Source: a virus
Virus record (IMG/VR): IMGVR_UViG_3300026187_000001
Direction: 5' to 3' (one strand)
Length of the DNA stretch: 41,039 nt
The notes beneath the pieces were generated by a model. It saw only the letters and a list, made by a program, of their open reading frames with translations, was not told the origin of the DNA and ran no database searches. Numbering within the stretch: the stretch's first letter is position 1; each line of letters begins with the position of its first letter. Below are positions 11,619-37,842 of this stretch, piece by piece. The position numbers and the translations under genes are program-made.

Positions 11619-11620
11619 TC

Positions 11621-13329: not shown

Positions 13330-13330
13330 G

Positions 13331-13692: not shown

Positions 13693-13694
13693 TC

Positions 13695-16951: not shown

Positions 16952-17739
16952 CCGCTCCCATACTGCCGTTTGATGGTTTCGAGTGATACAAACTCAGGCT
17001 CGTAGACACCGTTCTCTAACTCACGTTTAACTACAACACCTTTCCACCACTCATTATTAGATTGTCCTGCCCACGTTTCCTCGCTTCCCTTGAAGCATCC
17101 CGCAACAAGCCCGATAATCGAAGTAGGATGTGCAGTATCTTTAAAATAAATACTACGTTTGTGACTGTGACCACAAGTAGAACTATGGTTCCTGTTTTGT
17201 AGTAGGGTGTAAGCATGATGAACACCAGAGACAGGTGTCCCATAATTCCCAGAACCAAAGAAGTGAGCGTAAGATACGCCATCGTAATCAGCGATACTGG
17301 GGGCCGAATTGTGGTACTCATGGTACTCGTCGAACCAGTACTTCGTTTGAAGATGGCTGAAGGAAATCCCGTACTTTTCTCCCTGTAGTCTTGGGTCGTG
17401 GGCGATAGCCTTTTTGATTCTATTTTCATGGTTACCCTCAAGTCCTATCCAGAAGGGACGTTTACGTTTATGATGTCTGAACTTCCACCGTAGTCTTTCT
17501 TGTGCGTCATTGTAACACTCAATATCTCTACCGTAGTTCTGTGATACAATAGCCTGTGGGTATCGTGTATCGAAACTGTTGAGTGATTTAAGATCAGCAC
17601 CGTCACCTAAGTCTACAACATAGTCTGGTTTCAGATCATATATGAATGCACCTAGCCAACTGAACCTGTCGTTAGGCGTACCTGGGTCAGCGTGAGCACA
17701 CGTGAATACCAGTACAGTCTTCTTCTTTTTAAGCATCAT
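16948..17739 (-). CDS. Calcineurin-like metallophosphoesterase (about 263 aa)
   Basis: Motifs VFTCAHAD, DLGDGAD, GNHENR and GHSH. The start is probably MMLKKKK (17739 or 17736) rather than the track start at 17766. Confidence 0.75.
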   Translation of the reverse strand: MMLKKKKTVLVFTCAHADPGTPNDRFSWLGAFIYDLKPDYVVDLGDGADLKSLNSFDTRYPQAIVSQNYGRDIECYNDAQERLRWKFRHHKRKRPFWIGLEGNHENRIKKAIAHDPRLQGEKYGISFSHLQTKYWFDEYHEYHNSAPSIADYDGVSYAHFFGSGNYGTPVSGVHHAYTLLQNRNHSSTCGHSHKRSIYFKDTAHPTSIIGLVAGCFKGSEETWAGQSNNEWWKGVVVKRELENGVYEPEFVSLETIKRQYGSG

Positions 17740-17959
17740 ACATACTATTGTTACGGATAACAACACCCTCTATAGATTGTGATACTTTCTTAGCTTCTTG
17801 GTATGCCTCGTCGAAAGTCTCGTATAGCATTTCTGTTTCTTCTACTTCACCATTGTACTCTGATAAGTAGACAACACAGTAGGGATTGTTACCGTTTTCA
17901 TCTGCGTACTCAGGATGTTGAAATGGTTCTTGTAACACCTTGTGTAGTATGAGTTTCAT
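17729..17959 (-). CDS. Hypothetical protein (76 aa)
   Basis: Packed between its neighbours on the same strand. I recognised no motif. Confidence 0.45.
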   Translation of the reverse strand: MKLILHKVLQEPFQHPEYADENGNNPYCVVYLSEYNGEVEETEMLYETFDEAYQEAKKVSQSIEGVVIRNNSMYDA

Positions 17960-18357
17960 TTCTTAGGTTCCTTTAACCAAGCATCAGGTATCAGCCTGTC
18001 TGCATATTTAAATCCGTATCTGTCGCACCACATACCGTAGGTAGTCTTGCTACCTTTATATAGTCTAGCCTTACTATTTGTAAAGACAAACCGTATATCT
18101 AAGTCAGGGTACTGATCACGTACAGCCAAGTGTTTAGCTCTATCTGGGGAAATGAACCGTCCCTTGGTTTCGATTATGATACCGTTCTCTAGTACAAAGT
18201 CAGGTGTGTATGTCTTAGTCTTAGGATCAACCCACTTAATCTTGAACTCTTCATAAGTGAACTTCACACCTTTCTTCTTTAAGAACTTAGCAGTATCTTG
18301 CTCAAGACCTGAACGGTAACCTGCCCTCAGTGCTCTCTGTCTTACCTTAATCTTCAT
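17956..18357 (-). CDS. Endonuclease I (T7 gene 3-like Holliday junction resolvase), about 133 aa
   Basis: It aligns along its length to my recollection of T7 endonuclease I: SGLE...KGVKFTYEEFKI...YTPDFVL.NGIIIETKG...DRAKHL..RDQYPDLDIRFVF......LYKGS.TTYG.WC...GFKYADRLIPDAWLKEPKK. The start MKIKV (18357) is preferred over the track start at 18399. Confidence 0.9.
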   Translation of the reverse strand: MKIKVRQRALRAGYRSGLEQDTAKFLKKKGVKFTYEEFKIKWVDPKTKTYTPDFVLENGIIIETKGRFISPDRAKHLAVRDQYPDLDIRFVFTNSKARLYKGSKTTYGMWCDRYGFKYADRLIPDAWLKEPKK

Positions 18358-19207
18358 CCATAGATACCTCTGGAACTTTAGGTTCTGAGCGTACATCAAC
18401 TAGGTATACAGGGCCAGTGCTGTAAATAAACTTACGTGCTTCAGGCCAACACTGCTTCTTAAACTCACAGTAGCTACACATGATAGGCAGCTTGCTATTG
18501 GGACTCGACTTGGACTGTGGAACTTTATTCTGTCGTTGATCAGGCATATCACCTGCGACAAGTTCTTTAGCCTCTAACATCTCCTGCTCTTTGGTTCTGA
18601 GTTCCTCTGTGAAGTCATAAACATCTAGGCACATGTGTCCGTTCTGTTTATCTATCGCTAAGAATGCGCCGTGTGTTTTATCTGTTACCTTGTCATCATC
18701 TTGTCCTGCATACACATAACTAGATAGCTGACTGATGTAACCGAATGGATCGTCTTGTCGTAGGTTCCCTTCCTTGAACTTCTTGAATGCGTATGGACTA
18801 CAAGACTTGACATCGATAGTCATACCGTCAATCACTGCATCACGATGACCTTTGATACCGTGTACATTCAGACGATCTTGTTGTCCCTTCACATCATGTC
18901 CTGCAGCTATTGCTAGTGTCAGTGCTAGTTCCTCAATCATGTCACCATAAAAGAACTTGAACAGTGCGTCAGACTCTAGTGGCTTACCCTCTGCAGGTGT
19001 GTTGACTTTGTACCATAGCTTTCTCTTGCATGGAGTACCGATAGAAGACAGAGATAAATAACCTCGTGGCTCCTGTGGTTTGCTGAATCGTTTGTTAGCC
19101 ATCAGAGCGATGTTGTGGCCTAGAATAGAACCCTCTAATCCAGACCACCCACCGTTACCTTTGATAACCTCTTGCATATCAGCAATCAGAGTATCAATGG
19201 TTTTCAT
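18347..19207 (-). CDS. PD-(D/E)xK exonuclease of the Cas4/RecB type with a 4-Cys cluster (286 aa)
   Basis: Motifs HRDAVIDGMTIDVKS (D...D-x-K) and QLSSY (QxxxY). The Cys ligands are GTPCKRKLWY at the N-terminus and CSYCEFKKQC at the C-terminus. Confidence 0.75.
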   Translation of the reverse strand: MKTIDTLIADMQEVIKGNGGWSGLEGSILGHNIALMANKRFSKPQEPRGYLSLSSIGTPCKRKLWYKVNTPAEGKPLESDALFKFFYGDMIEELALTLAIAAGHDVKGQQDRLNVHGIKGHRDAVIDGMTIDVKSCSPYAFKKFKEGNLRQDDPFGYISQLSSYVYAGQDDDKVTDKTHGAFLAIDKQNGHMCLDVYDFTEELRTKEQEMLEAKELVAGDMPDQRQNKVPQSKSSPNSKLPIMCSYCEFKKQCWPEARKFIYSTGPVYLVDVRSEPKVPEVSMDED

Positions 19208-19701
19208 TAGAAGCCTACTGCCTCGTTCTCTTGGATGTACTCAACAAGCTCAAGAACCTTGACACCAACCAAGGATGTACGGCTGTACTGTTTACCGTCT
19301 GAACCTGTGAAGGTAGTGACTAGGTTAGTACACTCAGCTACTGTACCGTTACCGATCACACCCATGTCTGCAGTCCAAGGGTTACCGTCCTTGTCTGTTA
19401 CCTTCGGTGCTCCACCTGCTTGTGGAATCTCAGTACCGTCCTTCTTTGTAACCTTGTGTGGACGTACAAACTTTACTACAATCTCACCATCAATCATACG
19501 ATTCTGGTTAGGTTGCTTCTGAGAACCTGCGTCCTTCAGTGCTTTCATACCGTCCTTGGTGAGTACTTGGTTGACAGTGTAAGCACCGTCCGACTTTTCA
19601 TACGCACCACCATACCCTGTAAGGTCACGGTTTTCCTCAGTTAGACGAGGCCATTCGATTGCACCAGTAGTTGTTACTTCTTTGTAGATTGTTTTAGGCA
19701 T
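19207..19701 (-). CDS. Single-stranded DNA-binding protein, T7 gp2.5-like (164 aa)
   Basis: It lies between the DNA polymerase and the nuclease. It has an OB-like core (IGNGTVAEC...SLVGVKVLELVEY) and an acidic C-terminal tail ending in Phe (QENEAVGF), as gp2.5 does. Confidence 0.6.
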   Translation of the reverse strand: MPKTIYKEVTTTGAIEWPRLTEENRDLTGYGGAYEKSDGAYTVNQVLTKDGMKALKDAGSQKQPNQNRMIDGEIVVKFVRPHKVTKKDGTEIPQAGGAPKVTDKDGNPWTADMGVIGNGTVAECTNLVTTFTGSDGKQYSRTSLVGVKVLELVEYIQENEAVGF

Positions 19702-19725
19702 TGGTTTTCCTTCTATTTTGTAGGG

Positions 19726-19764
19726 CCATACTTATATATTAATACATATAGTAGCGTCTGTCAA
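19726..19764 (-). promoter_or_regulatory. Sigma70-type promoter upstream of the SSB gene: TTGACA-N17-TAATAT followed by ATAAGTATGG
   Basis: On the minus strand the -35 is 19764..19759 and the -10 is 19741..19736. It shares a roughly 16-nt block with two other promoters. Confidence 0.65.
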
Positions 19765-19768
19765 GGGG

Positions 19769-21649
19769 TCAATGTGTATCTTTCCACGATTTTCCTATCG
19801 AAGATTCACCCTCTAACGGACACATAATTCCGAGATGCAAACCTGCCCATTGGATCGCATCACGTTGTATCTGAGCTAGTCTCTCTGCGTCTTGATAACT
19901 TCCTCTCACTTCTGTTTGCCATTCGTCATGTACCCATGTACATATCTTAAAGTCAAGACCTTCTTGCTTTGCCTGTTCACGCCACCGTCTTGTAGCGTAC
20001 TTCATTACAAGTGTCTCGCCATTCTGCAACATACCTGCTAGTGTCTTGTGTTCGTTAGGTACTACAACCTTGCGTCCATCGTACCCTCTGAAGTAACCAC
20101 GAGATGCTATCTCAGGTATAACATTCTTCTTTAGTTTAGCTAGTCCTTCAATACTATTAGTAAAGTTAGACACTGCTTTGTTTGCCTGACCCATACCTGT
20201 CTTCAGTATCTGTGCGATCTTTGCTGTACCTGCACCAAGTAGGAATGCATAGATGAATGTCTTAGCCATGTCTCTAGTGATATGATTCAGACCCAGAGCC
20301 TTACGATTAAGGTTGTGTATATCTGTGTCGTCTTCTTTCTTACCTTCGATAATAGCCTTAACATACTGCTTACTCTCCATGATGTCAGCAAGTATCCGAA
20401 GTTGGATTCCTGCAGCATCCGTACCAACAAGATAGCACCCATCAGGTGTTGTCCATAAGTCTCTAAACTGTCCATCGTAATCTGCCTTTACTTTGTCTAC
20501 CGCAGTCTTAGCATCACCATGATACACACTTGGTATGTTACCCATGTTAGGGTGACGGTGTGCCATGCGTCCTGTCCATGATCCTATGTGCATGAACTGA
20601 CCGTGGATGCGTGTATCCCTGCTACTCTCCACTGCCTGTAGCCACTCTGTGAGTGTGCTTCTGCGTCCTTCTAAGGTCAACCACTCAGCAAGTGCCTTTG
20701 CCCCCTCTGGTGCGCTCTGAGGCAGCGTGTTGAGGTTCTCCTCTGATACTGTCCAACCATACTTCTTGTAGTAGTCAAGCTTCTCTGTCTGTTCCTTGCG
20801 GATAGCCTCACGGTGACCGACTGTTTTATCTACAGGATTCCAACCTGCATCCCACAATCTCTCGACTCGTTGCTTCGTAGAACCTGGGTTGAACTCTACG
20901 TAGTCGTAGCACTCTAGCATATCGTCAACGATCTTTGTCTCAGGGTATGTCTCAAGTGCAGTCTCTACATTCTTGAACAGGTTACCGTCTTCCTTAACAC
21001 GGTACTTGATAGTCTTGATTAGTTCTAGCTTGGGTGGGAATGCCTGATGAATACGTTCCTCTAGTTCTTGTAGTCGTTTAGTAATCTCTAGATGCAAACG
21101 ATTCGCAGTTGCTATGTCAAACTCGAACCCACCCTCGTGCATCTCTTGGCAGATGATTGCTACATCATGTTCAAGGCGCATAGACTGTGACCAATCCTTG
21201 TCCTTGATCTGCTTAGAGAAGTGATCGAATAGTTTCTCTGTTACCTCAACGTCACGGTGACAGTAGTCTAGCATCTCTTGTGTCAGGCCACCCTCGAAGT
21301 CCTTGAAGTTATCCTTCGGGAAGCCTAGCTTCTCACCCCATGTTGCAAGACTGTGTGATCCGATACCGAAGTCAACAAGCATAGACACAACCAAGGTATC
21401 AACAATCTTCTGCATGTCGATGACTTGTCCTACAATCCTGTTGATCACAGGCGCATCGAAGTTGATGAAGTTGTGACCAACCCAACGTGTGACACCCTTG
21501 GCGTACTGCTTGAACCGATCACGTTCCTCTTCGTTCTCATGTAGGTTGACGAACTGGTGTGTCTTACCTGACTCTTTCTCTTTCACACAGATACACCACA
21601 ACTTGTCAGGGGTCAGGCTCTCTGTCTCTATGTCTGCGAATACTATCAT
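19769..21649 (-). CDS. DNA polymerase, family A, T7 gp5-like with a 3'-5' exonuclease domain (626 aa)
   Basis: ExoI FADIETE; motif A DAAGIQLRILA; motif B RDMAKTFIYAFLLGAG; motif C VHDEWQTE. Confidence 0.95.
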   Translation of the reverse strand: MIVFADIETESLTPDKLWCICVKEKESGKTHQFVNLHENEEERDRFKQYAKGVTRWVGHNFINFDAPVINRIVGQVIDMQKIVDTLVVSMLVDFGIGSHSLATWGEKLGFPKDNFKDFEGGLTQEMLDYCHRDVEVTEKLFDHFSKQIKDKDWSQSMRLEHDVAIICQEMHEGGFEFDIATANRLHLEITKRLQELEERIHQAFPPKLELIKTIKYRVKEDGNLFKNVETALETYPETKIVDDMLECYDYVEFNPGSTKQRVERLWDAGWNPVDKTVGHREAIRKEQTEKLDYYKKYGWTVSEENLNTLPQSAPEGAKALAEWLTLEGRRSTLTEWLQAVESSRDTRIHGQFMHIGSWTGRMAHRHPNMGNIPSVYHGDAKTAVDKVKADYDGQFRDLWTTPDGCYLVGTDAAGIQLRILADIMESKQYVKAIIEGKKEDDTDIHNLNRKALGLNHITRDMAKTFIYAFLLGAGTAKIAQILKTGMGQANKAVSNFTNSIEGLAKLKKNVIPEIASRGYFRGYDGRKVVVPNEHKTLAGMLQNGETLVMKYATRRWREQAKQEGLDFKICTWVHDEWQTEVRGSYQDAERLAQIQRDAIQWAGLHLGIMCPLEGESSIGKSWKDTH

Positions 21650-21687
21650 TCAATTCTCCTATCCAGTGCGTCACGTCATCATATGGG

Positions 21688-23280
21688 TTAGCTCCATCTA
21701 CCTCTGTCTTCTGAGAGTTTGAAGCTTGCCTCGTCGAATCTAAGCTTCCCTGCGAATCCTGTTTTACCTGCAGGTCTGTTCTTGACGAGGAGTAGTTTCG
21801 TTGTGTTCCTTTCATCACGATCCTCTGCCATCTTATCACGTTCTAGTTTCACTACAACAGATGCACGTTTCGCAATGGTTCTGCAATCTCGTACCTGTCC
21901 ATCATCATTCTCATGGGCGATGGTTACGATTCCCACGTTTAGTTCAGAGGCAATGCGAGATAGCTGTACTGACAAAGCAGACAACCATTTCTCTACTGAC
22001 TCCTCACCCTTACGAGAGTAGGCTAAGTCTTGTATCGGTTCAAAGAATACGTAGTCTACTCCACAAGCCTCACGGAAATACCTGATCTTTTCTAGTATGT
22101 CCATAGGGTCTTCGTCTACTGCGATCTGGAACTGGAACAGGCGTTCATCTTGTGATAGTTCGATGATTGCTTGCTTGACTTCCTCTTCCATATCGTGTTC
22201 TTGTATCAAGTCTTTACGTGTCAGGTTCATGTTCAAGTGGTACGACACTAGACCTAACACACTTCGCTTCTCTGTTTCTTCTAGGTGACAGATAGCAATG
22301 CTTGTATCCTTGTGCTCAGTCAAGACGTGGTACTCTAGGTAGCGCATGAACTCTGTCTTGCCGATACCTTCGGGTGCTTGGAACACAGTGAAGTGTCCTT
22401 GCATCAGACCAAGTGCAACGTCATCAAAGGATTCGATACCTGTCGATACGTACACTGCATCGTCTTGCTTCTCGAATAGTTCTAGGAACTGTTCAGGTGT
22501 GCTACGAATGTTGTCAGGTGTGTACCGTTTAGCATTGTAGAATGCTGCAGCGTAGCTAGGTTTAGCACCTGCCTCTAAGAACTCGTTAGCATCCTTGAAC
22601 TTATCGTGTATGATCTGGAATGTTTTCTTCGGGAACAGTGCGCCGATCTTGGTAGCCAATGCACGTCCTGCCTCGTCGTTATCTACTGACAACACAATCC
22701 TGTCGAAGCTATCGATCCACTCCTTTGCTTTACCCTGCCACAGTTTCTGATTAGGTGTGGCACTAGGCACGGATACACATGGGTACTTCTTGTCGAGCAT
22801 CTGGAATGCAGACATAGCATCTAGCTCACCCTCGCATATCACGATAGACCTAGCTGACCCTGCGTTGAACTTATCCATACCGAATAGTTCATCAGTCTTG
22901 AATCCCTTGTCTGTCTTGAATCCTTTCTCCTTGGTGTTGCGTACCTTACGGAATCCTGATGGGTACTTGTACACCTGATTGAATCCGAATGTCTGTACAT
23001 CGTAGAACTCCATGACATCTTTGCGTACACCACGGTAAGCTTCGTAGTCACCAAGCCCTTCGATCTCTGTGGTCTTGATTGTCTGTACTGATACTTGTTT
23101 TAGTTCTTGCAATGGATAAGTCTCCTTCGCCCAGGGTTTCAGGCTCATACCTTTACTTGGGTAGCCACGGTCACAACTATGGCAGTACCCTGTCATCTTC
23201 TCTGTGTTGTACGCAAAGGCATCTGAACTTTCACAGTCTGCATGTGGGCAGGGTTGGTGTGTTACTTCTCTAGCTTGCAT
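21688..23280 (-). CDS. Bifunctional primase-helicase, T7 gp4-like (530 aa)
   Basis: Zinc finger CPHADC...CHSCD; TOPRIM motifs VICEGELDAMS and VDNDEAG; Walker A APEGIGKTEF; DnaB-like C-terminal half. Confidence 0.9.
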   Translation of the reverse strand: MQAREVTHQPCPHADCESSDAFAYNTEKMTGYCHSCDRGYPSKGMSLKPWAKETYPLQELKQVSVQTIKTTEIEGLGDYEAYRGVRKDVMEFYDVQTFGFNQVYKYPSGFRKVRNTKEKGFKTDKGFKTDELFGMDKFNAGSARSIVICEGELDAMSAFQMLDKKYPCVSVPSATPNQKLWQGKAKEWIDSFDRIVLSVDNDEAGRALATKIGALFPKKTFQIIHDKFKDANEFLEAGAKPSYAAAFYNAKRYTPDNIRSTPEQFLELFEKQDDAVYVSTGIESFDDVALGLMQGHFTVFQAPEGIGKTEFMRYLEYHVLTEHKDTSIAICHLEETEKRSVLGLVSYHLNMNLTRKDLIQEHDMEEEVKQAIIELSQDERLFQFQIAVDEDPMDILEKIRYFREACGVDYVFFEPIQDLAYSRKGEESVEKWLSALSVQLSRIASELNVGIVTIAHENDDGQVRDCRTIAKRASVVVKLERDKMAEDRDERNTTKLLLVKNRPAGKTGFAGKLRFDEASFKLSEDRGRWS

Positions 23281-23926
23281 TTCTTAGTGCGCTCCATGAT
23301 ACAGGGAACAGACGTTCCATCTCTTCGTCAATAGCATCCGCTACAATACGTGACTCTCGTTGCGTGTCATCAGTGCATCGTAGGTTACACATGTCAACGA
23401 ATGCGTCAAGACTACCTGACCAATACCACTCTGTCATCATAGACTGAGGCAACACCATACGTGCTTGCTCTGGTGCGACACCCTCGTTGAGTAGTTGCTC
23501 ATACGCCATGAGAGCTTTCGTGTTGTAGTACTTAATGTTAAAGTTACTCTTGACTGTACCTTCACTGCCTTGCTTCTTGTCTGCGCTACGTCCACGCCAC
23601 TCAGGTGATTCGTATAACTCTACGTCAATGTCAACGTACCGACGACTGATCTCGTTCCAACGTAGGAACTTATGCTTGACTAGCTGACGTGCTACAAACA
23701 CAGGTGCCTTGACATGGAAAGATGCGAAGCAATGCCCGAATGGACTGATGTGTTTGTGCTTTGCAAGGTACTTGATTAGCTTGTCATCTTTGAACTGTAG
23801 TACCTTCGGCTCACCCATGTGAACACGTGGCATGTAGTCTGACTTCTTACCGAAGCTAACACGTGCAGCGTTGACCACTGTTAAGTCATCACCCATGTGA
23901 TTGATATAGGTTACCTCAATCATCAT
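23270..23926 (-). CDS. thyX: Flavin-dependent thymidylate synthase ThyX-like (218 aa), with KHK in place of the canonical RHR
   Basis: AARVSFGK, FHVKAPVFVARQLVKHKFLRWNEISRRY, ADKKQGS. The signature spacing (three residues, then X7, then Ser) is retained. Confidence 0.8.
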   Translation of the reverse strand: MMIEVTYINHMGDDLTVVNAARVSFGKKSDYMPRVHMGEPKVLQFKDDKLIKYLAKHKHISPFGHCFASFHVKAPVFVARQLVKHKFLRWNEISRRYVDIDVELYESPEWRGRSADKKQGSEGTVKSNFNIKYYNTKALMAYEQLLNEGVAPEQARMVLPQSMMTEWYWSGSLDAFVDMCNLRCTDDTQRESRIVADAIDEEMERLFPVSWSALRNAS

Positions 23927-24233
23927 CTTTCCTTACATAATTTTCTATGAAGTGTTTGACACTCTTACTTTGATACCATTTATTTTTATTAAGAACTCTC
24001 CACTTACCAGTAAGTAATGCATAGATAAACTTATCTTCTACTAACACAGTCCCTGACCCATGATGTTTCCAATTAACACCACTCAGTATAAGCTCTCTTT
24101 CCTGTTGCAATCTTTTTAACTCATTCCACGGCCCTTTTCCGTATTGATCTTTATCATAAACCCTTATCTCAGCAAGCCTCACTTCTTCACTTTGCTTCTC
24201 TATCTCTTTGTCTATCCTTTCTAACTCAATCAT
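23916..24233 (-). CDS. Hypothetical protein (105 aa from MIELERIDKE)
   Basis: ATG 24233 overlaps the stop of the upstream 56-aa ORF (ATGA). The track start at 24254 is the less likely choice. Confidence 0.5.
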   Translation of the reverse strand: MIELERIDKEIEKQSEEVRLAEIRVYDKDQYGKGPWNELKRLQQERELILSGVNWKHHGSGTVLVEDKFIYALLTGKWRVLNKNKWYQSKSVKHFIENYVRKDDD

Positions 24234-24400
24234 TTTACATCCACCTCTAAACATACAACTGCCTCGCCTTTGTGTGTGACTAACACCTGTGCTTCATCCA
24301 ATGCTTGTATGCATTCATCTTTCTTCGGGAAAGATTTAATCTGATAATACTCTACACCCTGACTGTTGGTTATCTGAAACCAAACCAATACCCATATCAT
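24230..24400 (-). CDS. 56-aa ORF not in the track (MIWVLVWFQITNSQGVEYYQIKSFPKKDECIQALDEAQVLVTHKGEAVVCLEVDVK)
   Basis: Hand translation. ATGA overlaps at both ends. Hydrophobic N-terminus and two Cys. Confidence 0.55.
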   Translation of the reverse strand: MIWVLVWFQITNSQGVEYYQIKSFPKKDECIQALDEAQVLVTHKGEAVVCLEVDVK

Positions 24401-24516
24401 TGCTTACCACCTTTGAATCTGTGCTTGAAGAACACGATAGTATTCAACCCAGTGTTAATCGTTACCATCAACAGTATCCACCACTGCCACCATACTAATC
24501 CACCTACTTCAAACAT
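24397..24516 (-). CDS. 39-aa Trp-rich single-TM peptide not in the track (MFEVGGLVWWQWWILLMVTINTGLNTIVFFKHRFKGGKQ)
   Basis: Hand translation. Its start overlaps the previous ORF by 8 nt and its stop overlaps the next start. Confidence 0.5.
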   Translation of the reverse strand: MFEVGGLVWWQWWILLMVTINTGLNTIVFFKHRFKGGKQ

Positions 24517-24619
24517 CCTCGTCCTTTCCTTTGTGTTTCTTTTTCCTAAATGGTTTAGGTTTCTTCTTATCTGGTATGACTTTCTGCTTGTACTTAGGTT
24601 GCCTCAAGTCTTTAGCCAT
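24509..24619 (-). CDS. 36-aa polybasic peptide not in the track, ArfA-like (MAKDLRQPKYKQKVIPDKKKPKPFRKKKHKGKDEDV)
   Basis: Hand translation. The pattern P-x-Y-K-Q-K-V-x3-KK-x4-F-RKKKH parallels E. coli ArfA P-L-F-R-Q-R-V-x3-KK-x4-Y-x-RKGKH, recalled from memory. Confidence 0.5.
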   Translation of the reverse strand: MAKDLRQPKYKQKVIPDKKKPKPFRKKKHKGKDEDV

Positions 24620-24623
24620 TGGA

Positions 24624-24785
24624 TTAGAACGTGATGTTACCGTCTTCATCGTATGGACTCCTGAAGTAACCCTTCATCATACATTCCTGGCGAGGATCAA
24701 AGTCATCATCGTCATCCTCGAAGTCTAAGTCTACTGGTGTCATCACACCAATCTCACGCATAAAAATTTCTAGTTCTGTGTTCAT
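24624..24785 (-). CDS. 53-aa acidic ORF not in the track (MNTELEIFMREIGVMTPVDLDFEDDDDDFDPRQECMMKGYFRSPYDEDGNITF)
   Basis: Hand translation. RBS ggagtaataaacATG. It is the first gene after the promoter at 24794..24835. Confidence 0.55.
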   Translation of the reverse strand: MNTELEIFMREIGVMTPVDLDFEDDDDDFDPRQECMMKGYFRSPYDEDGNITF

Positions 24786-24793
24786 GTTTATTA

Positions 24794-24835
24794 CTCCTAT
24801 ACTTATATATTAGTACATTCTGATCGACGTGTAAA
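24794..24835 (-). promoter_or_regulatory. Sigma70-type promoter: TTTACA-N17-TAATAT followed by ATAAGTATAGGAG
   Basis: On the minus strand the -35 is 24835..24830 and the -10 is 24812..24807. It has the same conserved block as the promoters at 19726 and 27962. Confidence 0.6.
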
Positions 24836-24837
24836 GA

Positions 24838-25041
24838 CTATTCTTCATATTTATCTTTGATACCAAGAAGTCTTTTCAATTCATCCTCTTCGTTGATCTT
24901 GAAGATTCTTTCAAGGTCATCTCTACCGAATGTACTGTAAGCAGTCTTGTTAATATCGTCCTTACACTCAACGCAGTAGAACCGTTGCATCTTTTTATCT
25001 ACAAACGTAGCGTCTGCTCTGTTACAACAAAAACATCTCAT
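24838..25041 (-). CDS. Small zinc-ribbon protein (67 aa)
   Basis: CFCC...CVEC Cys pairs, with an acidic C-terminal half. Confidence 0.55.
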   Translation of the reverse strand: MRCFCCNRADATFVDKKMQRFYCVECKDDINKTAYSTFGRDDLERIFKINEEDELKRLLGIKDKYEE

Positions 25042-25063
25042 GTCCTGCCCCTTTCTTTAGTCT

Positions 25064-25152
25064 CTTACTAATAGTAATGTGTATAAAGTATTACTATACT
25101 TATAACACAGATTCTTTAAGTATTATCCTTTAAGTAAGATAGGGTATCACAA
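25064..25152. repeat. Copy A of a roughly 90-bp imperfect direct repeat (partner 27817..27910)
   Basis: Shared blocks: CTTACT, TAAAGTATTA, TATACTTATAACACA (15/15) and ATAGGGTATCA (11/11), with about 70 percent identity between them. On the minus strand it contains TGTTATAAG, an extended -10-like element. Confidence 0.8.
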
Positions 25153-25329
25153 ATCCTTGTCGTTGTCAAGTGCTTCTTGCATGTGTGCATGATACCCCAT
25201 CTCAAATCCATTCCAGAAGTTAGATTTGATAACCTTGTTGTCGATCTGCTCAGAGTCCTTGCGCCCAACTAGGAATCCCAGTGCAAACGCTAGACCGATC
25301 AAGGCTACCAACCATCCATCAAGTGTCAA
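25147..25329 (-). CDS. Small membrane protein (60 aa)
   Basis: N-terminal TM helix WLVALIGLAFALGFLVG. Confidence 0.5.
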   Translation of the reverse strand: MTLDGWLVALIGLAFALGFLVGRKDSEQIDNKVIKSNFWNGFEMGYHAHMQEALDNDKDL

Positions 25330-25531
25330 CGTACTGCTCCTTTAGGTTGAACATGAAAGCATTGATGACACCGTGAAACATCTTGTTCTGCTTATGCGAA
25401 TCCTTGATCTTCAACTGTACTATCTCTAGCTTCTCACGTGCTTCTCTTACATTAAGTTTCTTTGTTATCACTCTGAAACTATTGTCTTCTAGTTCAGCGA
25501 TGATTACGTATGCGTCTGGTTTGTTATCCAT
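25319..25531 (-). CDS. Hypothetical early protein (70 aa)
   Basis: On the same strand and tightly packed. No motif recognised. Confidence 0.45.
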   Translation of the reverse strand: MDNKPDAYVIIAELEDNSFRVITKKLNVREAREKLEIVQLKIKDSHKQNKMFHGVINAFMFNLKEQYVDT

Positions 25532-25532
25532 T

Positions 25533-25667
25533 CTATGTTCCTAGTGCTAGTGCTATCATTACAACCATAGATAAAGTCAGTGCTCTGCCTACGATCATTA
25601 CGTATTGTGGTGGTAGCGGTATCGCTATGTACAGTGACAACACTACCAACCATGTAAGTAAACCCAT
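25533..25667 (-). CDS. 44-aa two-TM peptide not in the track (MGLLTWLVVLSLYIAIPLPPQYVMIVGRALTLSMVVMIALALGT)
   Basis: Hand translation. Its ATG overlaps the upstream stop (TAATG) and its stop lies 1 nt before the next ATG. Confidence 0.5.
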   Translation of the reverse strand: MGLLTWLVVLSLYIAIPLPPQYVMIVGRALTLSMVVMIALALGT

Positions 25668-25888
25668 TACTCGTCGTCACCCCAATCCTTTGTTACTGTG
25701 CAGTTGTTCCAACCATCATCGTATGCGTCGATCTCCTCTTGTGTCATGTGTTCCATTGTTACGACACGTGATCCTAAACTGTCAAGCCATAGGTTAGGCA
25801 TAGCTCTGCGTCCGTAGTATCTATCAGCGTGACCCCTGTCGTATGCAGATTCCAACCTGTCCATTGCCATTGCGTTTACTTTACCCAT
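25667..25888 (-). CDS. Hypothetical early protein, acidic C-terminus (73 aa)
   Basis: ORF with RBS-like aaaggaaataacATG. No motif recognised. Confidence 0.5.
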   Translation of the reverse strand: MGKVNAMAMDRLESAYDRGHADRYYGRRAMPNLWLDSLGSRVVTMEHMTQEEIDAYDDGWNNCTVTKDWGDDE

Positions 25889-25941
25889 GTTATTTCCTTT
25901 CGATTTGCTTATGCGGATTAAGATTCAATTAACCATGCTAG

Positions 25942-25995
25942 AATATAGCAACAGATTAGTATTGTCAAGAGAAAAATTCCTATTGTCATTGTCAA
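25942..25995 (-). promoter_or_regulatory. Weak promoter/operator candidate with reiterated TTGACAAT boxes
   Basis: The minus strand reads ggggTTGACAATGACAATAgg...ctcTTGACAATActaatctgttgcTATATT. The spacer from -35 to TATATT is only 15 nt, so this is tentative. Confidence 0.3.
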
Positions 25996-25999
25996 CCCC

Positions 26000-26590
26000 T
26001 TAGATATTGTGTTCACGTTTCCATGTAGTCCATGTAATTGCTTGCAATTCATGAGGTAGTATGCCTACACGCTTTGCAGCTTTAACATATGCAGCTTGCA
26101 TGTCAAGATATAATTTCTTACCCATGTTTGTCTTGTCTGTGGTCAGTCCTTCACGATACCCACGAGCAATGTTGAGTGCATGTCCGTCAATCGTAACCTC
26201 ATTGAGTCCACGAATGTTAGAGTAGAATGATCTGATTTTCTGTCCGTTGAGTCGAGTCAGTATGTCATCATCATCAACTAGATTATCTGACAGGATAGAC
26301 CACGCCTTTTCTTTCATCTTGTTATAACACGACACCTTGAAGTCGGTCAGATCACCACCTTGTATCCATGCAACACACATTGTTTCTGTGTCCTTGATGT
26401 TGCGTTCCCACCGATTGTTGGGTGACAGCGCAGCCATGACACCAATGACAGTATGACGGTGGATCATGTACTTGGTTGAGATTACTTTTGCGTATCTTGC
26501 CGCACGATCATACCATTCTAGACCGTTTGCGTGGTCCTCTGGTGTTGCTCTGCGGTATACTTTGAGTATGTTTTTGACGTGTTGTGTCAT
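26000..26590 (-). CDS. Conserved hypothetical early protein (196 aa)
   Basis: A long clean ORF. The block WYDRAARYAKVIS...VMAALSPNNRWERN recalls a widespread uncharacterised phage family. No function can be assigned. Confidence 0.55.
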   Translation of the reverse strand: MTQHVKNILKVYRRATPEDHANGLEWYDRAARYAKVISTKYMIHRHTVIGVMAALSPNNRWERNIKDTETMCVAWIQGGDLTDFKVSCYNKMKEKAWSILSDNLVDDDDILTRLNGQKIRSFYSNIRGLNEVTIDGHALNIARGYREGLTTDKTNMGKKLYLDMQAAYVKAAKRVGILPHELQAITWTTWKREHNI

Positions 26591-26672
26591 TGGTCCTGTT
26601 CCTCTTTCTTTCCTATTTGTGTTGGTTTATCTAGTGACACCTTAACAGATGTCACCAATAAATCAACCCCTT

Positions 26673-27089
26673 TTATCCATTGTGTACTGTGTCTGGATTT
26701 CCTTTAACAGTGATCCAATACATGTTTAAATCTGGTCGGTATGTCCAAGCATCATGTTTCATTGCTTCATCTTTAGAAACATCTTTTAAAGAGCCTACAC
26801 TTTCCCTTGTCTGATCGGAATAAACCAGTTCAGCATATTGTTTATTGCACTCTGATACCCTAAGTATACTTTCCTGATTTTCAACGAACCCCTTGCCTAT
26901 AACGTGTTCTTTGAAATCATCCCATAACATCATATAGGACGGCTCAATTTCACCTTTATACGATCCGATACAGTGTACCATGTTACCTTTCATTTTTTGC
27001 ATGGCTCTTGCGGTATCTATATGACGCAAAAATTTAGCTTGTGTGTGTGTGTCGGTTACATTGTCTATTGAGAATATAACGTATTTCAT
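26673..27089 (-). CDS. Hypothetical early protein (138 aa)
   Basis: Clean ORF with RBS aggaaagaaaaATG. No motif recognised. Confidence 0.5.
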   Translation of the reverse strand: MKYVIFSIDNVTDTHTQAKFLRHIDTARAMQKMKGNMVHCIGSYKGEIEPSYMMLWDDFKEHVIGKGFVENQESILRVSECNKQYAELVYSDQTRESVGSLKDVSKDEAMKHDAWTYRPDLNMYWITVKGNPDTVHNG

Positions 27090-28013: not shown

Positions 28014-28556
28014 ATGTCTATGTATAACCTACAACAGCTTAAAACAGAGAACGGAATCATAAGGACTAAGAGTTTGTTTTACGAACTGTCCTATGACTCA
28101 CCAGAGTATGCGTTGTTTACGCTGAAAGAAGAAGACATCGTGATGCCTGATGGCAGACCTGCTACGGCTCTGGGTAAGTTGTACATAGCATTTGCAACAA
28201 TGGACCCGACAGAGTACCAGTTCGCTACTGCAGTCTTTGGTAGTTGGGAAGTCTGGGAAAAGATGCAGACGACTGTGCCACTCAAGAAACCTATTGAGAA
28301 GTGGCGTAGAGAGGCAGAAGTAAAACGTAAATCACTTGCCTTTGAGTCTGTTATAAAAGAAATACAAGAGGGTGGGCGTAGTAGTTTCACTGCAGCTAAG
28401 TTCTTAATCAACGAAGAATGGAAAGCTAAAGAAGACGGACGTGCTGCTCGTAAAGAAAAGAATCTAAAAGACAAGACTACATCTGAAGAAGCTTTCGAAA
28501 GAGCAGGTGTAAACGAAGACTTGAAGCGATTAAAAGATCAGGGTTTAATAAACTGA
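28014..28556 (+). CDS. Hypothetical protein, first gene of the plus arm (180 aa); possibly a DNA-binding protein or small terminase subunit
   Basis: Clean ORF. The basic, coiled C-terminal half (KWRREAEVKRK...) and the promoter-proximal position are the only support for the functional guess. Confidence 0.5.
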   Translation: MSMYNLQQLKTENGIIRTKSLFYELSYDSPEYALFTLKEEDIVMPDGRPATALGKLYIAFATMDPTEYQFATAVFGSWEVWEKMQTTVPLKKPIEKWRREAEVKRKSLAFESVIKEIQEGGRSSFTAAKFLINEEWKAKEDGRAARKEKNLKDKTTSEEAFERAGVNEDLKRLKDQGLIN

Positions 28557-28578
28557 TTCAAAAGGGAGGCGCAAGCGA

Positions 28579-28872
28579 ATGGCTAAACGGCCTACAGTAA
28601 ATACGATTAGTTCTGGCTATGCTTCACAGAGTCAGTTAAATGAAAACTTTACAAATCTTAAAAATGGATTTAATAATACTCTGTCACTAGATGGTAGTGC
28701 TCCGAATGCTATGCAAGGTGACTTAGACCTAAACGATAATGATCTTTTAAATGTACGTGCTATCTATGTAGATGGTGTTAATGTTCTTAATGTCTTAGAC
28801 AATGTTACTGTTAGTACAGCAAGCCCTACAGGTGGTGAAGACGGTGACATCTGGTTTAAAGTATCTAGTTAA
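28579..28872 (+). CDS. Short tail-fibre-like protein carrying only the conserved fibre N-terminal module (97 aa)
   Basis: NENFTNL...LSLDGSAPNAMQGDLDLNDNDLLNV is the N..M.gdLDmN.n.i.N motif common at the N-termini of phage tail fibres and tailspikes. Confidence 0.55.
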   Translation: MAKRPTVNTISSGYASQSQLNENFTNLKNGFNNTLSLDGSAPNAMQGDLDLNDNDLLNVRAIYVDGVNVLNVLDNVTVSTASPTGGEDGDIWFKVSS

Positions 28873-28912
28873 CAAATAAAGCATAAGCGAAAGCAAAGAA
28901 GGAATATAAAAT

Positions 28913-29299
28913 ATGGCTGCTCTTTCAGATCACGCAGAAGACCTACTACTAGACTTCCTAATGACAAGTGGCACTGCTACTCGTCCTACAGCCTGGTATC
29001 TAGCTCTATTCACTGCTGCACCTAATGACGCAGGTGGTGGTACAGAAGTATCTACAGGTGGATATACACGTCAGACGATTGCATTTAGTGCTGCTTCTGG
29101 TGGTGCTACAAGTAATACTGCTGACGTAAGTTATACTGCTTCGGGTGCTAACTACGGCACAGTTACTCACGTGGGTATATTTGATGCAAGTTCTGGTGGT
29201 AACCTACTATGGCACGGTGCGATGACTGCATCTAAGACTGTTGAAGATGGCGACACAATTACATTTGCTGCAGGTAACGTAGACCTTACACTAGCATAA
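28913..29299 (+). CDS. Conserved fibre-cluster protein (128 aa)
   Basis: The pattern LLDFL...P.AWYLALFTAAP...GGTEVS.GGYTRQ...IFDA.SGGNLLWHG recalls a family often found beside tail-fibre genes. Its function is unknown. Confidence 0.5.
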   Translation: MAALSDHAEDLLLDFLMTSGTATRPTAWYLALFTAAPNDAGGGTEVSTGGYTRQTIAFSAASGGATSNTADVSYTASGANYGTVTHVGIFDASSGGNLLWHGAMTASKTVEDGDTITFAAGNVDLTLA

Positions 29300-29317
29300 T
29301 AGCAAAGGGCTTCTGTC

Positions 29318-30613
29318 ATGGCTAATATATACAGAGGCGCAACCGTAAGGCCAGTCTTCTACTACGAGAATACAAGTGGTGGTTTTAGGGCTGACCTTCA
29401 GCTTGATCTAATTAGTTTAGACGGTACTACTTATAGTTTTGAGTCTAGCGGTAATGGGTTTGAAACTACTACTACCTCAACAGATATAAGTAATTATGAT
29501 ACTGCTAGTTGGACTACTGTATTAACAGGTACTACATCAGGACGGTTTAACAGAGACACAGCAGGAACAGGTTCATCTGGTACTGGTCTAAATACTGCTG
29601 CTGCAGGTAGCTACTACTTATACGCTGAGACATCTAGCCCTGCGACTGCTGTAGGATTTGATTTTCTTCTTAGAGGACCGCAAGTAACTTTAGGGAATGA
29701 CCCTGACTTTACTTTCTATGAGGCTCGTTATAGTAGCGACAGTACAATGGGTACGCTTAAAGTGTACCTTGAAGTTATTACTTCTGGTGCAGGTGGTGCT
29801 CCTACAGGATTATCTCCTTTACTTCTTACTACCACAGGAAACACTGCTTCTTGGGTACAACAGACAGTAGATATTCAATCTGTTGAAGGTTTCCGTATAG
29901 ATGAAGCAAGTAATACACGTATTGCTGAGAACGGTGATGTACGTATTACAGAACAGTTCGTTGAAGGTTTATCTGCACTATCAGGATCAGGTGCTCTAGC
30001 TTCTGTAGCAAATACTACTTATCAGGCTGCGTCTAGTTTATCGTCTATTGGTTCTAAGCTTACTGCTGCAGGATTAACATCTGAAGCTGATCCTATTACC
30101 CTGAGTGCTACAGGAACTATGACTGCTACAGGCGGTGCGTTGTTCCAAGACTCAGTAAGTGTATCAGGAACAGGTACTGCTACGTTCCTTGGATTGAATA
30201 GCTTCGATATTAGTAAAGCATTCAGTGGAACAGGTACAGCAACCTTCGATGGTATACGTATTAAGAATGCTTCTGGGTCGTTTAGTGCATCAGGTACGTT
30301 TAGCAATGTTTATGACTTTGTACACTACGGTGCTTTACTTACAGAAGACGAAGAGTTTACACGTATTACTGAAGCAGGTGACACTCGTATAGACGAAGCA
30401 GGTAATACACGAATTGTTCTAATTGCAGGAAATGTCGGTGAAGGCTTCTTAGAAGCAGACTGTACACAGATTATCTTTAGTTCTACTGCGTATATAAAAT
30501 GGAATGGTCAGTGGACTACCTTCACACCTAAAGTTAAACAAGATGGTACGTGGGATGACCCTCTAGCTATCTATAAAAAGATTGATGCGAATACTTGGAA
30601 GAGGGCTTATTAA
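29318..30613 (+). CDS. Tail fibre / receptor-binding protein with a MAM/LamG-like N-terminal domain and RITE-GD-R repeats (431 aa)
   Basis: GTGSSGTGLNTAAAGSYYLYAETSS is MAM-like. The peptides RIDEASNTRIAENGDVRITE and FTRITEAGDTRIDEAGNTRI are repeated, as is the SGTGTATF unit. Confidence 0.6.
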   Translation: MANIYRGATVRPVFYYENTSGGFRADLQLDLISLDGTTYSFESSGNGFETTTTSTDISNYDTASWTTVLTGTTSGRFNRDTAGTGSSGTGLNTAAAGSYYLYAETSSPATAVGFDFLLRGPQVTLGNDPDFTFYEARYSSDSTMGTLKVYLEVITSGAGGAPTGLSPLLLTTTGNTASWVQQTVDIQSVEGFRIDEASNTRIAENGDVRITEQFVEGLSALSGSGALASVANTTYQAASSLSSIGSKLTAAGLTSEADPITLSATGTMTATGGALFQDSVSVSGTGTATFLGLNSFDISKAFSGTGTATFDGIRIKNASGSFSASGTFSNVYDFVHYGALLTEDEEFTRITEAGDTRIDEAGNTRIVLIAGNVGEGFLEADCTQIIFSSTAYIKWNGQWTTFTPKVKQDGTWDDPLAIYKKIDANTWKRAY

Positions 30614-30616
30614 AAA

Positions 30617-31234
30617 ATGGCTAATATTAAAATCTCAGATATGACTGCTGCAGCCAATGCTTCTGGTACGCAGGAATACGAAGTAAATGAAAGTGGTACT
30701 ACTAAGAAAGTAACTGGTGCTCAGATTTCTACTTATGTCAGAGGTACTGTAACCCTAGCTGACTTGAGTGTAACTGCTTCAGCTACTGAATTAAACTATA
30801 ATGACATTACGACTCTAGGTACATCTGAAGCAAGTAAGACTGTTACTGCAGATGCTAACGGTGATGTTAACTTAACAGAAGAACTAAAAGCTAAATCATA
30901 TAACGAGACATACGCTGCAGTTACTTCTACCTCTAACGCTACAACAGTTAACTGTGAGAACGGTAATGCATTCAGTCATACTCTGACAGAGAACACTACA
31001 TTTACTTTTAGTAGTCCACCTGCAAGTGGCACTGCATTTAGTTTTAGTTTAGAGATTATTCAGGATGCATCAGCAAGCGGCTACACAGTCACATGGCCTA
31101 CGTCTGTTGATTGGCCCTCTGCTACGGCTCCTACATTAACTGCAACTGCATCCGCTAAAGATGTCTTCGTGTTCTATACACGAGATGGCGGTACTAACTG
31201 GTATGGATTCACTGCAGGTCAAGCACTAGGTTAA
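30617..31234 (+). CDS. Tail fibre protein (205 aa)
   Basis: The N-terminus MANIKISDMTAAANASG...KKVTGAQISTY and the C-terminal WP....WP.ATAPTLT......DVFVFYTRDGGTNWYGF resemble common fibre anchor and tip modules. Confidence 0.55.
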   Translation: MANIKISDMTAAANASGTQEYEVNESGTTKKVTGAQISTYVRGTVTLADLSVTASATELNYNDITTLGTSEASKTVTADANGDVNLTEELKAKSYNETYAAVTSTSNATTVNCENGNAFSHTLTENTTFTFSSPPASGTAFSFSLEIIQDASASGYTVTWPTSVDWPSATAPTLTATASAKDVFVFYTRDGGTNWYGFTAGQALG

Positions 31235-31247
31235 GGAGTAATAACTA

Positions 31248-32909
31248 ATGGCTTCTAAGAAAAAGTTATTACAAGCTGCATCAGGTGTATCTACAGGTAT
31301 TCCAGGTGCATGGGACTTAGCCTATGCTTTTCCAGACGATCCTAATACTTATGTAACTTATGGTATGGGAATTAATGATTCTTCTAGCGGAGTTTTTGCT
31401 GAAGGTTCAAATCCTTTTACAGTATTCTTTAAACCTGACGGTACAAAGATGTATGTCATTATCAGCGCAGGTGCTTCAAGTGGTGATAACGACACAGTAT
31501 TCCAATACTCTCTGAGTACGGCTTGGGATGTGACTACAAAAAGTTACGATAGTAAAAAGTTTTCTTTTGCATTACAAGAGACTAGCCCTTGGGGGTTGTG
31601 GTTTAAACCAGATGGTACTAAGATGTATATGTCTGGCTCTTTAAACGATACTCTTTTTCAGTATTCTTTATCTACTGCTTGGGATGTATCTACAGCATCT
31701 TATGATAGTGTATCTGTAGTTTTGTCAAGTTTTGCAGGGGATATAATAGCCACCGCTACAAGCATCTTTTTCAAGGATGATGGTACTGAATTTTATGTAA
31801 TAGACCCTGGTAATGATGATGTCCACCATTTTACTTTATCTACTGCTTGGGATTTAACTGCAAGCAACTGGACAAGACAAACAGACTTTTATGTTGGGGG
31901 TGAAGAATCTTCTCCTGCAGGTATAGCCCTTAGTCCTGACGGTAAGTATATGACAATACTTGGATACGCAGGAGATGATTTTACTAGCTTTAAATTAAGT
32001 ACTGCATGGGACACATCAACTGCTACTCTTATAAACGGTAGCCAAGTTTATGTTGGAGGTCTTGAAACTTCGCCAAGAAGTTTTGTTTGGGGGGAAGATG
32101 GTCGTGCTCTTTTCTATACTGGAACTGGTAGTGATCAAGTTCGAAAGTTATATGTGGGTGGATGGTCTTTCCTTTCTGAAGGAACAGCCCCAAGAGACAT
32201 AGCTTTCAATGATGATGGCACTATAATGTACATCCTAGATGATGCAGGGAATGACATTAACTATTATGACTTAACAATTCCTTATGATACGTCAGAAGAT
32301 AATGTTGTTGTAGATGGTGCAAAAAGATTCAGTCAGAATGAAAGTGTACCCAACGCACTTGACTTTAAAGCAGATGGAACAAGTCTTTACGTTAGTACTG
32401 AAAACAATATTACACAATATGATATGAGTACTGCATGGGATACATCGACTGCTTCAACAGGTAGTACTTTTAATCATACACCAACTGGAGCCACGGGTAT
32501 GAGATTTAGACCTGATGGCACTCAGGTGTTTGTAAATTATCAAGCTGATGATACTGTAAAAGCTTTAAATTTAAGTACTGCTTGGGATATATCAACTGCT
32601 TCATATGCAACAGGACAATCTTTTGATTATTCAACTCAATCTGCAAATGCTTGGGGAATAGAGTTTAAACCTGATGGTAAGAAATTATACATTCATTCTG
32701 AACAAGATGACAAGATATATCAGTATAGTTTAAGCACCGCATGGGATTTAACTACTGTTAGTTATGACAATACTTTTTATGACGCACGAACAAAGATAGG
32801 TAATGTATCGCCACATGGGATCAGGTTTAAACCAGATGGAACAAAGTTGTTTTATCTTGATAGTAATGAAGATAGAGTCATAAGAATTGGTGTTGAAGAT
32901 ACATCGTAA
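31248..32909 (+). CDS. Repeat protein, predicted beta-propeller with about 10 units of 50-58 aa; probable receptor-binding protein (553 aa)
   Basis: The STAWD motif occurs 7 times (LSTAWDVTT, VST, LTA, TST, TST, IST, LTT). Each is preceded by an F(K/R)PDG(T/K)K(M/L)(Y/F)-type strand. Confidence 0.6.
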   Translation: MASKKKLLQAASGVSTGIPGAWDLAYAFPDDPNTYVTYGMGINDSSSGVFAEGSNPFTVFFKPDGTKMYVIISAGASSGDNDTVFQYSLSTAWDVTTKSYDSKKFSFALQETSPWGLWFKPDGTKMYMSGSLNDTLFQYSLSTAWDVSTASYDSVSVVLSSFAGDIIATATSIFFKDDGTEFYVIDPGNDDVHHFTLSTAWDLTASNWTRQTDFYVGGEESSPAGIALSPDGKYMTILGYAGDDFTSFKLSTAWDTSTATLINGSQVYVGGLETSPRSFVWGEDGRALFYTGTGSDQVRKLYVGGWSFLSEGTAPRDIAFNDDGTIMYILDDAGNDINYYDLTIPYDTSEDNVVVDGAKRFSQNESVPNALDFKADGTSLYVSTENNITQYDMSTAWDTSTASTGSTFNHTPTGATGMRFRPDGTQVFVNYQADDTVKALNLSTAWDISTASYATGQSFDYSTQSANAWGIEFKPDGKKLYIHSEQDDKIYQYSLSTAWDLTTVSYDNTFYDARTKIGNVSPHGIRFKPDGTKLFYLDSNEDRVIRIGVEDTS

Positions 32910-32920
32910 GGAGAACTGTT

Positions 32921-33394: not shown

Positions 33395-33403
33395 GGACAC
33401 ATC

Positions 33404-36687: not shown

Positions 36688-36697
36688 GGAGTTTATC

Positions 36698-37815: not shown

Positions 37816-37842
37816 TCACAACTTTAAATAAGGAGAGTCAGT

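Follow-up and report, generated by a model that had tools for sequence, protein, structure and literature searches.

The closest described system to the gene reported here is ArfA of Escherichia coli (YhdL; PF03889), an RF2-dependent ribosome-rescue factor described as restricted to some beta- and gammaproteobacteria (2021 review, PMC8012679). BrfA of Bacillus subtilis is also a small RF2-dependent rescue factor. It has in common with ArfA a Lys-His pair within the channel for mRNA, known as the “KH motif” (PMC8012679), is regarded as independently evolved and has no sequence similarity beyond this pair. ArfT of Francisella tularensis, of about 40 residues, recruits release factors, and its basic tail has been proposed to reach into the mRNA channel (PMC6299226). 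As for phages, gp30 of pelagiphage HTVC027P has been termed ArfA and is highly transcribed both early and late in infection (PMC12753301, 2025), and an “alternative ribosome-rescue factor” or ArfA is annotated in Brevundimonas jumbo phages and in Citromicrobium phage RXM. ArfA encoded by phages is already documented at the level of annotation. Here we describe a gene of the IMG/VR virus record IMGVR_UViG_3300026187_000001, whose whole stretch of 41,039 nucleotides we call the window. The window is the genome, of roughly 41 kb, of a podophage, a marine roseophage whose DNA polymerase shares 81.6% identity with the one of Roseobacter phage CRP-4 (Zobellviridae; host RCA-lineage Rhodobacteraceae). 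On its minus strand, it encodes a 46-residue basic protein that matches the Pfam family DUF7230 (PF23876) and very probably is a distant homologue of ArfA.

A first, sequence-only reading of the window had reported a 36-residue peptide at this locus. Direct reading and the list of open reading frames (ORFs) agree on this peptide, which occupies precisely 24509-24619 of the minus strand with its stop codon counted in. The gene itself is longer, however, with 46 residues and coordinates 24509-24649(-). On the minus strand, the frame stays open for 10 codons further upstream, up to an ATG at 24649, which has an AGGAG box at a spacing of 8 nt, whereas the ATG at 24619 has no purine-rich box. An in-frame ATG is found 4-10 codons before the conserved motif in 80 of the 80 viral homologues examined. 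The Asn-Pro preceding the Met of the shorter form is kept among homologues, and this Met is replaced by Ile or Val in two of them (L019 and L026). Furthermore, the Pfam DUF7230 score rises from 15.8 bits with the 36-residue form to 23.2 bits with the 46-residue form. It is for these reasons that we assign the longer extent. The gene and its parts are as follows.

24509..24649, minus strand: 46-residue DUF7230/ArfA-like coding sequence, with the stop codon TGA at 24509-24511; the 36-residue peptide corresponds to residues 11-46
24658..24662, minus strand: Shine-Dalgarno-like AGGAG, placed 8 nt before the ATG at 24649 and within the 3' end of the preceding 53-residue ORF
24575..24625, minus strand: conserved head, residues 9-25 (NPMAKDLRQPKYKQKVI), aligned to ArfA 14-30, which holds Asn14, Pro23, Phe25 and strand 25-29
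24512..24574, minus strand: basic tail, residues 26-46, with 10 Lys/Arg and His39 in 21 residues

In terms of family, DUF7230 is the best and sole meaningful Pfam match of the protein (E 7.6e-5, 23.2 bits, profile positions 4-37 of 42, peptide residues 8-44). No function is assigned to this family, and no paper in the literature searched mentions it. Relatives 70-96% identical to the window protein carry a precomputed PF23876 assignment. Among 144 diverse relatives, half (72) match DUF7230 and seven match ArfA PF03889. No match to the protein was found in NCBIfam, and PHROGs gave weak matches to families of unknown function and nothing else. A tblastn search of cultured phage records with the peptide also returned no match, a result to which low-complexity filtering probably contributes. 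Judged from these profile matches, the window protein is probably a member of DUF7230, with a score below the curated cut-off.

The sequence-only reading had set the peptide against a segment of ArfA. The quoted segment is correct, being residues 22-45 of E. coli K-12 ArfA (NC_000913.3), and BLASTP reproduces the proposed one-gap alignment and extends it towards the N-terminus. Residues 9-39 of the window protein are aligned to ArfA 14-45, with 12 of 32 positions identical and a single-comparison E of 5e-4. Composition-preserving shuffles of the whole peptide reached the real score in 38 out of 20000 cases (p about 0.002). When the two parts are taken separately, p is 0.027 for the head alone (residues 9-25) and 0.29 for the polybasic tail alone, so that the likeness of the tail is compositional and the signal lies in the head. 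The basic “ribosome-binding core” on which the earlier reading had laid stress thus carries no signal beyond its composition; the informative part is the one equivalent to ArfA residues 14-29, which in ArfA lie at the decoding centre and contact RF2. Against a profile hidden Markov model of enterobacterial ArfA, the window peptide scores 6.8 bits, a value reached by 0.29% of composition-matched shuffles, and 49% of 70 close relatives (real DUF7230 proteins) are above the 99th percentile of shuffles. The direct comparison of the window protein with ArfA is suggestive only, and we take the transitive evidence to be decisive.

This transitive evidence comes from an exhaustive search of 1.84 billion (1.84e9) protein representatives with a close-family profile, termed A1. 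The search found 305 proteins at E<=1e-3, visibly sharing NPxAKDLRxPKY. In five proteins among the best 150 of these 305 (P0230, P0238, P0280, P0297 and P0333, with E between 1.3e-7 and 6.1e-5), a head of the DUF7230 type leads into KGKGSY/W, and the same five reach 28.1-41.5 bits on Pfam ArfA (PF03889), whose gathering score is 25.5 bits. One more protein, P0314, matches both DUF7230 and ArfA just under threshold. The window protein and P0238 are identical at 18 of 32 positions (56%, E 2e-9), and P0238 and E. coli ArfA at 17 of 32 (53%, ungapped, E 4e-10), over the same 32 residues and in the same register. The tails form a graded series, from E. coli ArfA to RKGKGSYSRKEKH (P0238), then to DRKKYSRKEKHKG (P0262, a strong DUF7230 match) and to DKKKPKPFRKKKHKG in the window.

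Profile-profile comparison points in the same direction. With hhalign, a broad alignment of the family (A3) matches enterobacterial ArfA with a probability of 85% and E 6.5e-6; after dropping all KGKGS-like rows, the probability is 54% and E is 1.3e-4. The ArfA side of these comparisons is shallow (Neff 1.7), since all sequences listed by the ArfA homologue search were enterobacterial and had at least 80% identity. When the E. coli K-12 chromosome is searched in six frames, the Pfam DUF7230 model has its sole candidate inside arfA (residues 29-51), with an E of 0.96 that is non-significant alone. On these comparisons we consider it very probable that the window peptide is homologous to ArfA. 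Since a DUF7230 profile search retrieves Pfam-positive ArfA bridges, and given the profile-profile E, we take DUF7230 to be a short and divergent branch of the ArfA family. The central idea of a phage-encoded ArfA-like peptide, as first proposed, is borne out by the bridges and by hhalign; the proposal that it is a mimic gives way to distant true homology, which fits better.

In terms of conservation, a word-indexed search gave 69 metagenomic homologues, in which Ala12, Lys13, Gln17, Pro18, Lys19, Tyr20, Lys29 and Lys30 are invariant, giving the motif AK..QPKY..KK. In IMG/VR, 418 relatives were confirmed, and their contigs are up to about 55 kb long. For 43 distinct viral DNA versions, over a 25-codon core, the ratio of nonsynonymous to synonymous polymorphism (pN/pS) is 0.11 (pooled pS 0.66, pN 0.07), where pN is biased downward by the motif-based choice of loci. 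The codon-position pattern is unaffected by this choice, and in the same 43 versions third positions are five times as variable as positions 1-2. The ArfA-like gene is real, conserved and under purifying selection. From the overlaps and the Shine-Dalgarno-like site, it is predicted to be translationally coupled to both of its neighbours.

The same head is found in other phages. HTVC027P gp30 has the head NPxAK[DE][LV]RTPKY together with KGRGSF, and freshwater contigs of T4-like phages carry P0337, which is positive for Pfam ArfA. The window protein and the phage proteins annotated as ArfA are both phage-encoded; those proteins keep KG[KR]GS[YF] and match Pfam ArfA, whereas the window protein has KKKPKPF at this place and no such match.

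As for cells, scanning a single genome for each species revealed 43 loci. Pelagibacteraceae (SAR11) have chromosomal genes of 35-38 residues, such as MKKKNLIAKDLRSPKYRSRVVKAKKGKGSFKRRKK, and one SAR11 copy is above the Pfam ArfA cut-off, with 29.6 bits. SAR86 and HIMB59-like alphaproteobacteria have chromosomal genes of 38-44 residues. The chromosomal copies lie in conserved housekeeping synteny, with genes for a response regulator, PfkB kinase, endonuclease III, TatC, acetyl-CoA synthetase, PolA and class I ribonucleotide reductase. A match is present in 13 of the 301 alphaproteobacterial genomes sampled. On this reading, the distribution conflicts with the description of ArfA as limited to some beta- and gammaproteobacteria (PMC8012679). 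The following chromosomal ArfA/DUF7230-like genes serve as examples.

L118:4989-5096, L120:4989-5105, L126 and L127: Pelagibacteraceae
L131-L134 and L095-L097: SAR86
L109, L111 and L114: HIMB59-like bacteria

We then compared the residues of the window protein with those of ArfA, taking the residue roles from Demo et al. 2017 (PMC5378476). In the bridge alignment, ArfA Asn14, Pro23, Lys34 and Arg41 are invariant, Asn14 corresponding to Asn9 of the window protein. ArfA Pro23, which stacks on A1492/A1493 (PMC5378476), corresponds to the invariant Pro18, and ArfA Phe25 to the invariant Tyr20. The ArfA strand 25-29 pairs with RF2 213-217 (PMC5378476), and here Phe25-Arg-Gln-Arg-Val29 is aligned to Tyr20-Lys-Gln-Lys-Val24. 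The mid-region features of the decoding centre, Pro23 and the strand, thus appear to be kept in the window peptide.

The KH motif of ArfA, Lys44-His45, is found as Lys38-His39. The segment of ArfA that lies in the mRNA tunnel spans residues 31-48, and truncation at Asn47 leaves the protein active, whereas truncation after Met40 abolishes its activity (PMC5378476). The window protein has 22 residues after the strand, against about 18 needed by ArfA, and its basic tail with the Lys-His pair would be long enough for the tunnel. Overall, the window protein and E. coli ArfA are both small and basic and have in common a 32-residue core, Asn14-His45, that aligns with one gap and includes the R/K-Q-R/K-V strand, the Lys-rich tunnel segment, the KH pair and the equivalents of Pro23 and Phe25. 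The window protein differs in being phage-encoded and in having no Pfam ArfA match, no KGKGS(Y), no minidomain and no non-stop-mRNA regulation. It also has no counterpart of the hydrophobic C-terminal extension of ArfA. With respect to an ArfA-type 3' hairpin or non-stop control at the gene, we found no significant structure (z -0.9), no terminator-like site and an ordinary TGA. ArfT, which we liken to the window protein by description, is also free of non-stop mRNA regulation (PMC6299226); it differs in using RF1 or RF2.

We propose that the phage brings its own ArfA-like factor, which would free ribosomes stuck on broken mRNAs, and we regard this as probable, with moderate confidence. The Lys-rich C-terminal half (residues 26-46, with Lys-His) would thread into the empty mRNA entry channel of a host ribosome halted on a truncated mRNA. 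The head, NPxAKDLRxPKYxxxV, equivalent to ArfA 14-29, would then lie at the decoding centre, with Pro18 in the place of ArfA Pro23 against A1492/A1493, and residues 20-24 would form a strand that pairs with a class-I release factor at its domain 2; by analogy, this factor would be RF2. It would hydrolyse the peptidyl-tRNA with no stop codon needed, after which the ribosome would be recycled. The gene sits in an early/middle operon just upstream of the replication genes and has an ordinary stop. As there is no ArfA-type hairpin that would place it under the control of transfer-messenger RNA (tmRNA), its synthesis during infection would be constitutive. Ribosomes would in this way be kept available while host or phage mRNAs are cleaved. 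We infer ribosome binding, release-factor recruitment and a benefit to the phage from the comparison with ArfA. Most likely, the empty channel is sensed as in ArfA and a release factor is engaged through the strand, while the mode of activation and the partner may differ.

Several observations weigh against this proposal. Neither the 46- nor the 36-residue form of the peptide is matched by Pfam ArfA, even at E<=10, so the profile match that the sequence-only reading had named as a check fails for the window peptide itself. The DUF7230 score of 23.2 bits is below the curated Pfam cut-off of 27 bits. With the A1 profile, a search of PDB sequences gave no ArfA chain and a chance match to eukaryotic uL24 (E 0.2), and a search of the E. 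coli chromosome missed arfA, with two weak matches elsewhere. The narrow hhalign comparison, A1 against A2, has a probability of just 3.7%, the narrow family profile being insufficient by itself.

In the protein, KGKGS(Y) is absent and replaced by KKKPKPF; in ArfA the residues of KGKGS are individually dispensable (PMC6299226). The patch Leu19/Leu24/Phe25 of ArfA binds RF2 Trp319, and RF2 specificity rests on it (PMC5378476). Two of the three patch residues are charged in the window protein (Leu19 to Asp14, Leu24 to the invariant Lys19), with the aromatic alone kept. ArfA Ala18 is aligned to Lys13, and the 13-residue N-terminal part of the ArfA minidomain (folded; Ile11, Ala18) is cut to eight unconserved residues before Asn9. 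Because the hydrophobic patch, Ala18 and the minidomain are not kept, activation of the release factor may be unlike that of ArfA. The short head is also seen in the chromosomal versions and is therefore a trait of this branch of ArfA and not a phage defect. A predicted complex with RF2 of Roseobacter denitrificans scored 0.28 (mark 0.32), which speaks neither for nor against binding. Lastly, the ArfA-like gene is missing from CRP-4, the closest phage in culture, although homologues of its flanking micro-genes are present there; more than 400 viral contigs carry the gene.

These changes allow other explanations. The protein could be a release-factor-dependent rescue factor with a changed partner, acting with both RF1 and RF2 like Francisella ArfT or with a host-specific release factor. 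Such a partner would fit the loss of all but the aromatic from the patch that sets RF2 specificity, and the 40-residue ArfT, itself very short, works with either release factor (PMC6299226). We give this a minor though real chance; on the sequence evidence it would be a sub-case of the rescue factor proposed above. If activation was lost altogether, the protein might be an ArfA-derived ribosome binder without rescue, its tail plugging the channel and its head in the A site with no release factor activated. It would then block the access of tmRNA-SmpB or ArfB, or sequester vacant host ribosomes, leading to host shut-off or a bias to phage messages. The features that contact the ribosome (the Pro23 equivalent, the KH motif and the basic tail) are kept, while most of those that activate RF2 are lost (Leu19 to Asp, Leu24 to Lys, Ala18 to Lys and a truncated minidomain). 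Moreover, the ArfA mutant A18T binds and fails to activate RF2 (PMC5378476), so binding and activation are separable. We consider such a binder unlikely, however. Genes with this same short head, Lys in the place of Leu24 included, are found in single copy among housekeeping genes on the chromosomes of SAR11, SAR86 and others, where a translation poison would be improbable, and the RF2-pairing strand, [YF]-[KR]-x-[QRK]-V, is the best-conserved part of the family.

A broader variant concerns the whole of DUF7230, whose members may be minimal, specialised factors of the A site and mRNA channel that keep the ribosome-sensing parts of ArfA and have re-invented the release-factor interface. With such peptides, and perhaps with another release factor or none at all, marine phages would overrule host trans-translation or compete with it, or neutralise defences that cleave mRNA or tRNA, beyond simple ribosome rescue. 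The invariant Lys for Leu24, the missing minidomain and, in the phage form, the missing KGKGS would be the marks of this new interface. Both the specialised role and the re-invented interface seem doubtful to us. A generic small basic nucleic-acid binder, for DNA condensation, as an RNA chaperone or as a replication accessory, would make the likeness to ArfA compositional or convergent. The tail similarity alone, which is not above composition (p 0.29), and the missing Pfam ArfA match are compatible with it, as is the location in a module of replication and nucleotide metabolism, often directly after the primase gene. Yet the head carries the signal and is not of low complexity, and the intermediates are 53-56% identical to both sides in one register. 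The hhalign E of 1.3e-4 persists without bridges, and the DUF7230 model picks arfA from the E. coli chromosome. A generic binder is thus quite improbable.

What appears new with respect to the phage ArfA already annotated is the tie between DUF7230 and ArfA, and a phage form without KGKGS and minidomain. If the rescue role is true, DUF7230, with hundreds of members in marine viral contigs, would gain a testable role, and the ArfA family would be widened to versions of 35-46 residues in SAR11, SAR86, other streamlined marine bacteria and phages. These natural deletion variants, without the minidomain and, in the phage form, without KGKGS, would define the minimum for empty-channel sensing and release-factor engagement. 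A constitutive rescue factor in an early/replication operon would also suggest that stalling on truncated mRNA limits phage yield; the source of stalling could be host mRNA turnover or RNA-cleaving defences.

Next, we looked at the genome context. Downstream of the ArfA-like gene are thyX, primase/helicase, DNA polymerase A, Cas4-like exonuclease, phosphoesterase, MazG and ribonucleotide reductase genes. In all phage lineages compared, the gene is located in the early/replication module; in other lineages it follows the primase gene and precedes an HNH-like gene or thyX. A fixed partner gene was considered and rejected, as the neighbours vary by phage lineage (primase, HNH-like gene, thyX or the 39-residue membrane ORF). 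The immediate neighbours in the window are the following.

24624..24785, minus strand: acidic 53-residue ORF, upstream; its final 26 nt are shared with the beginning of the ArfA-like gene, and the CRP-4 homologue gp08 is in the same position
24397..24516, minus strand: Trp-rich hydrophobic 39-residue ORF, downstream; its ATG overlaps the ArfA-like stop (ATGTTTGA)
24230..24400, minus strand: 56-residue ORF with an ATGA overlap with the 39-residue ORF; homologue of CRP-4 gp09, preceding a 112-residue ORF and the thyX-primase/helicase-DNA polymerase block

The 39-residue ORF is also absent from CRP-4. As CRP-4 has the flanking micro-genes and neither member of this pair, the ArfA-like gene and the 39-residue ORF are an accessory insertion. 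The 39-residue ORF (24397-24516 (-), MFEVGGLVWWQWWILLMVTINTGL...) has no family match in Pfam or PHROGs, and it accompanies the ArfA-like gene in two other loci (L006 and L018).

These genes are part of a coupled run of micro-genes at 24230-25041 (-), made of a 67-residue CxxC...CxxC zinc-ribbon and the acidic 53-residue, basic 46-residue, 39-residue and 56-residue ORFs. Several have counterparts in CRP-4 (gp06, gp08 and gp09), where an HNH endonuclease is inserted between gp06 and gp08. At a larger scale, the window has two divergent arms, 13967-27089 (-) versus 1-13928 and 28014-41039 (+), and the sign of the GC skew follows the arms. The minus arm (13967-27089) holds replication and nucleotide metabolism, with ribonucleotide reductase, MazG, phosphoesterase, Cas4-like exonuclease, PolA, primase/helicase and ThyX. 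No tRNA, tmRNA or Rfam element was found in the window.

Finally, some sequences with a likeness to the family have unusual architectures. In Roseobacter phage CRP-212 (MZ892988.1; L091:2489-2614 (+)), an unannotated ArfA-like ORF of 41 residues (MRQKNPVAKILRTPRYRQRKVMPKKGKGSYKRNTKHRKETT) lies out of frame within gp38, a large structural gene, in its acidic 3' tail. In the metagenomic protein P0283, the same gp38-like C-terminus is fused in frame to a DUF7230 motif. An overlapping gene or the product of a frameshift could account for this. In P0217 (645 residues), nine tandem units of roughly 63 residues match DUF7230 profile positions 7-21, with a summed E of 1.9e-8; this looks like a repeat or an assembly oddity and not like a family member. 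Lastly, P0290, P0286, P0229, P0332 and P0209 (117-166 residues) have the DUF7230 motif at the start and unrelated C-terminal domains after it, and may be natural fusions of a ribosome-sensing peptide or read-through gene calls.

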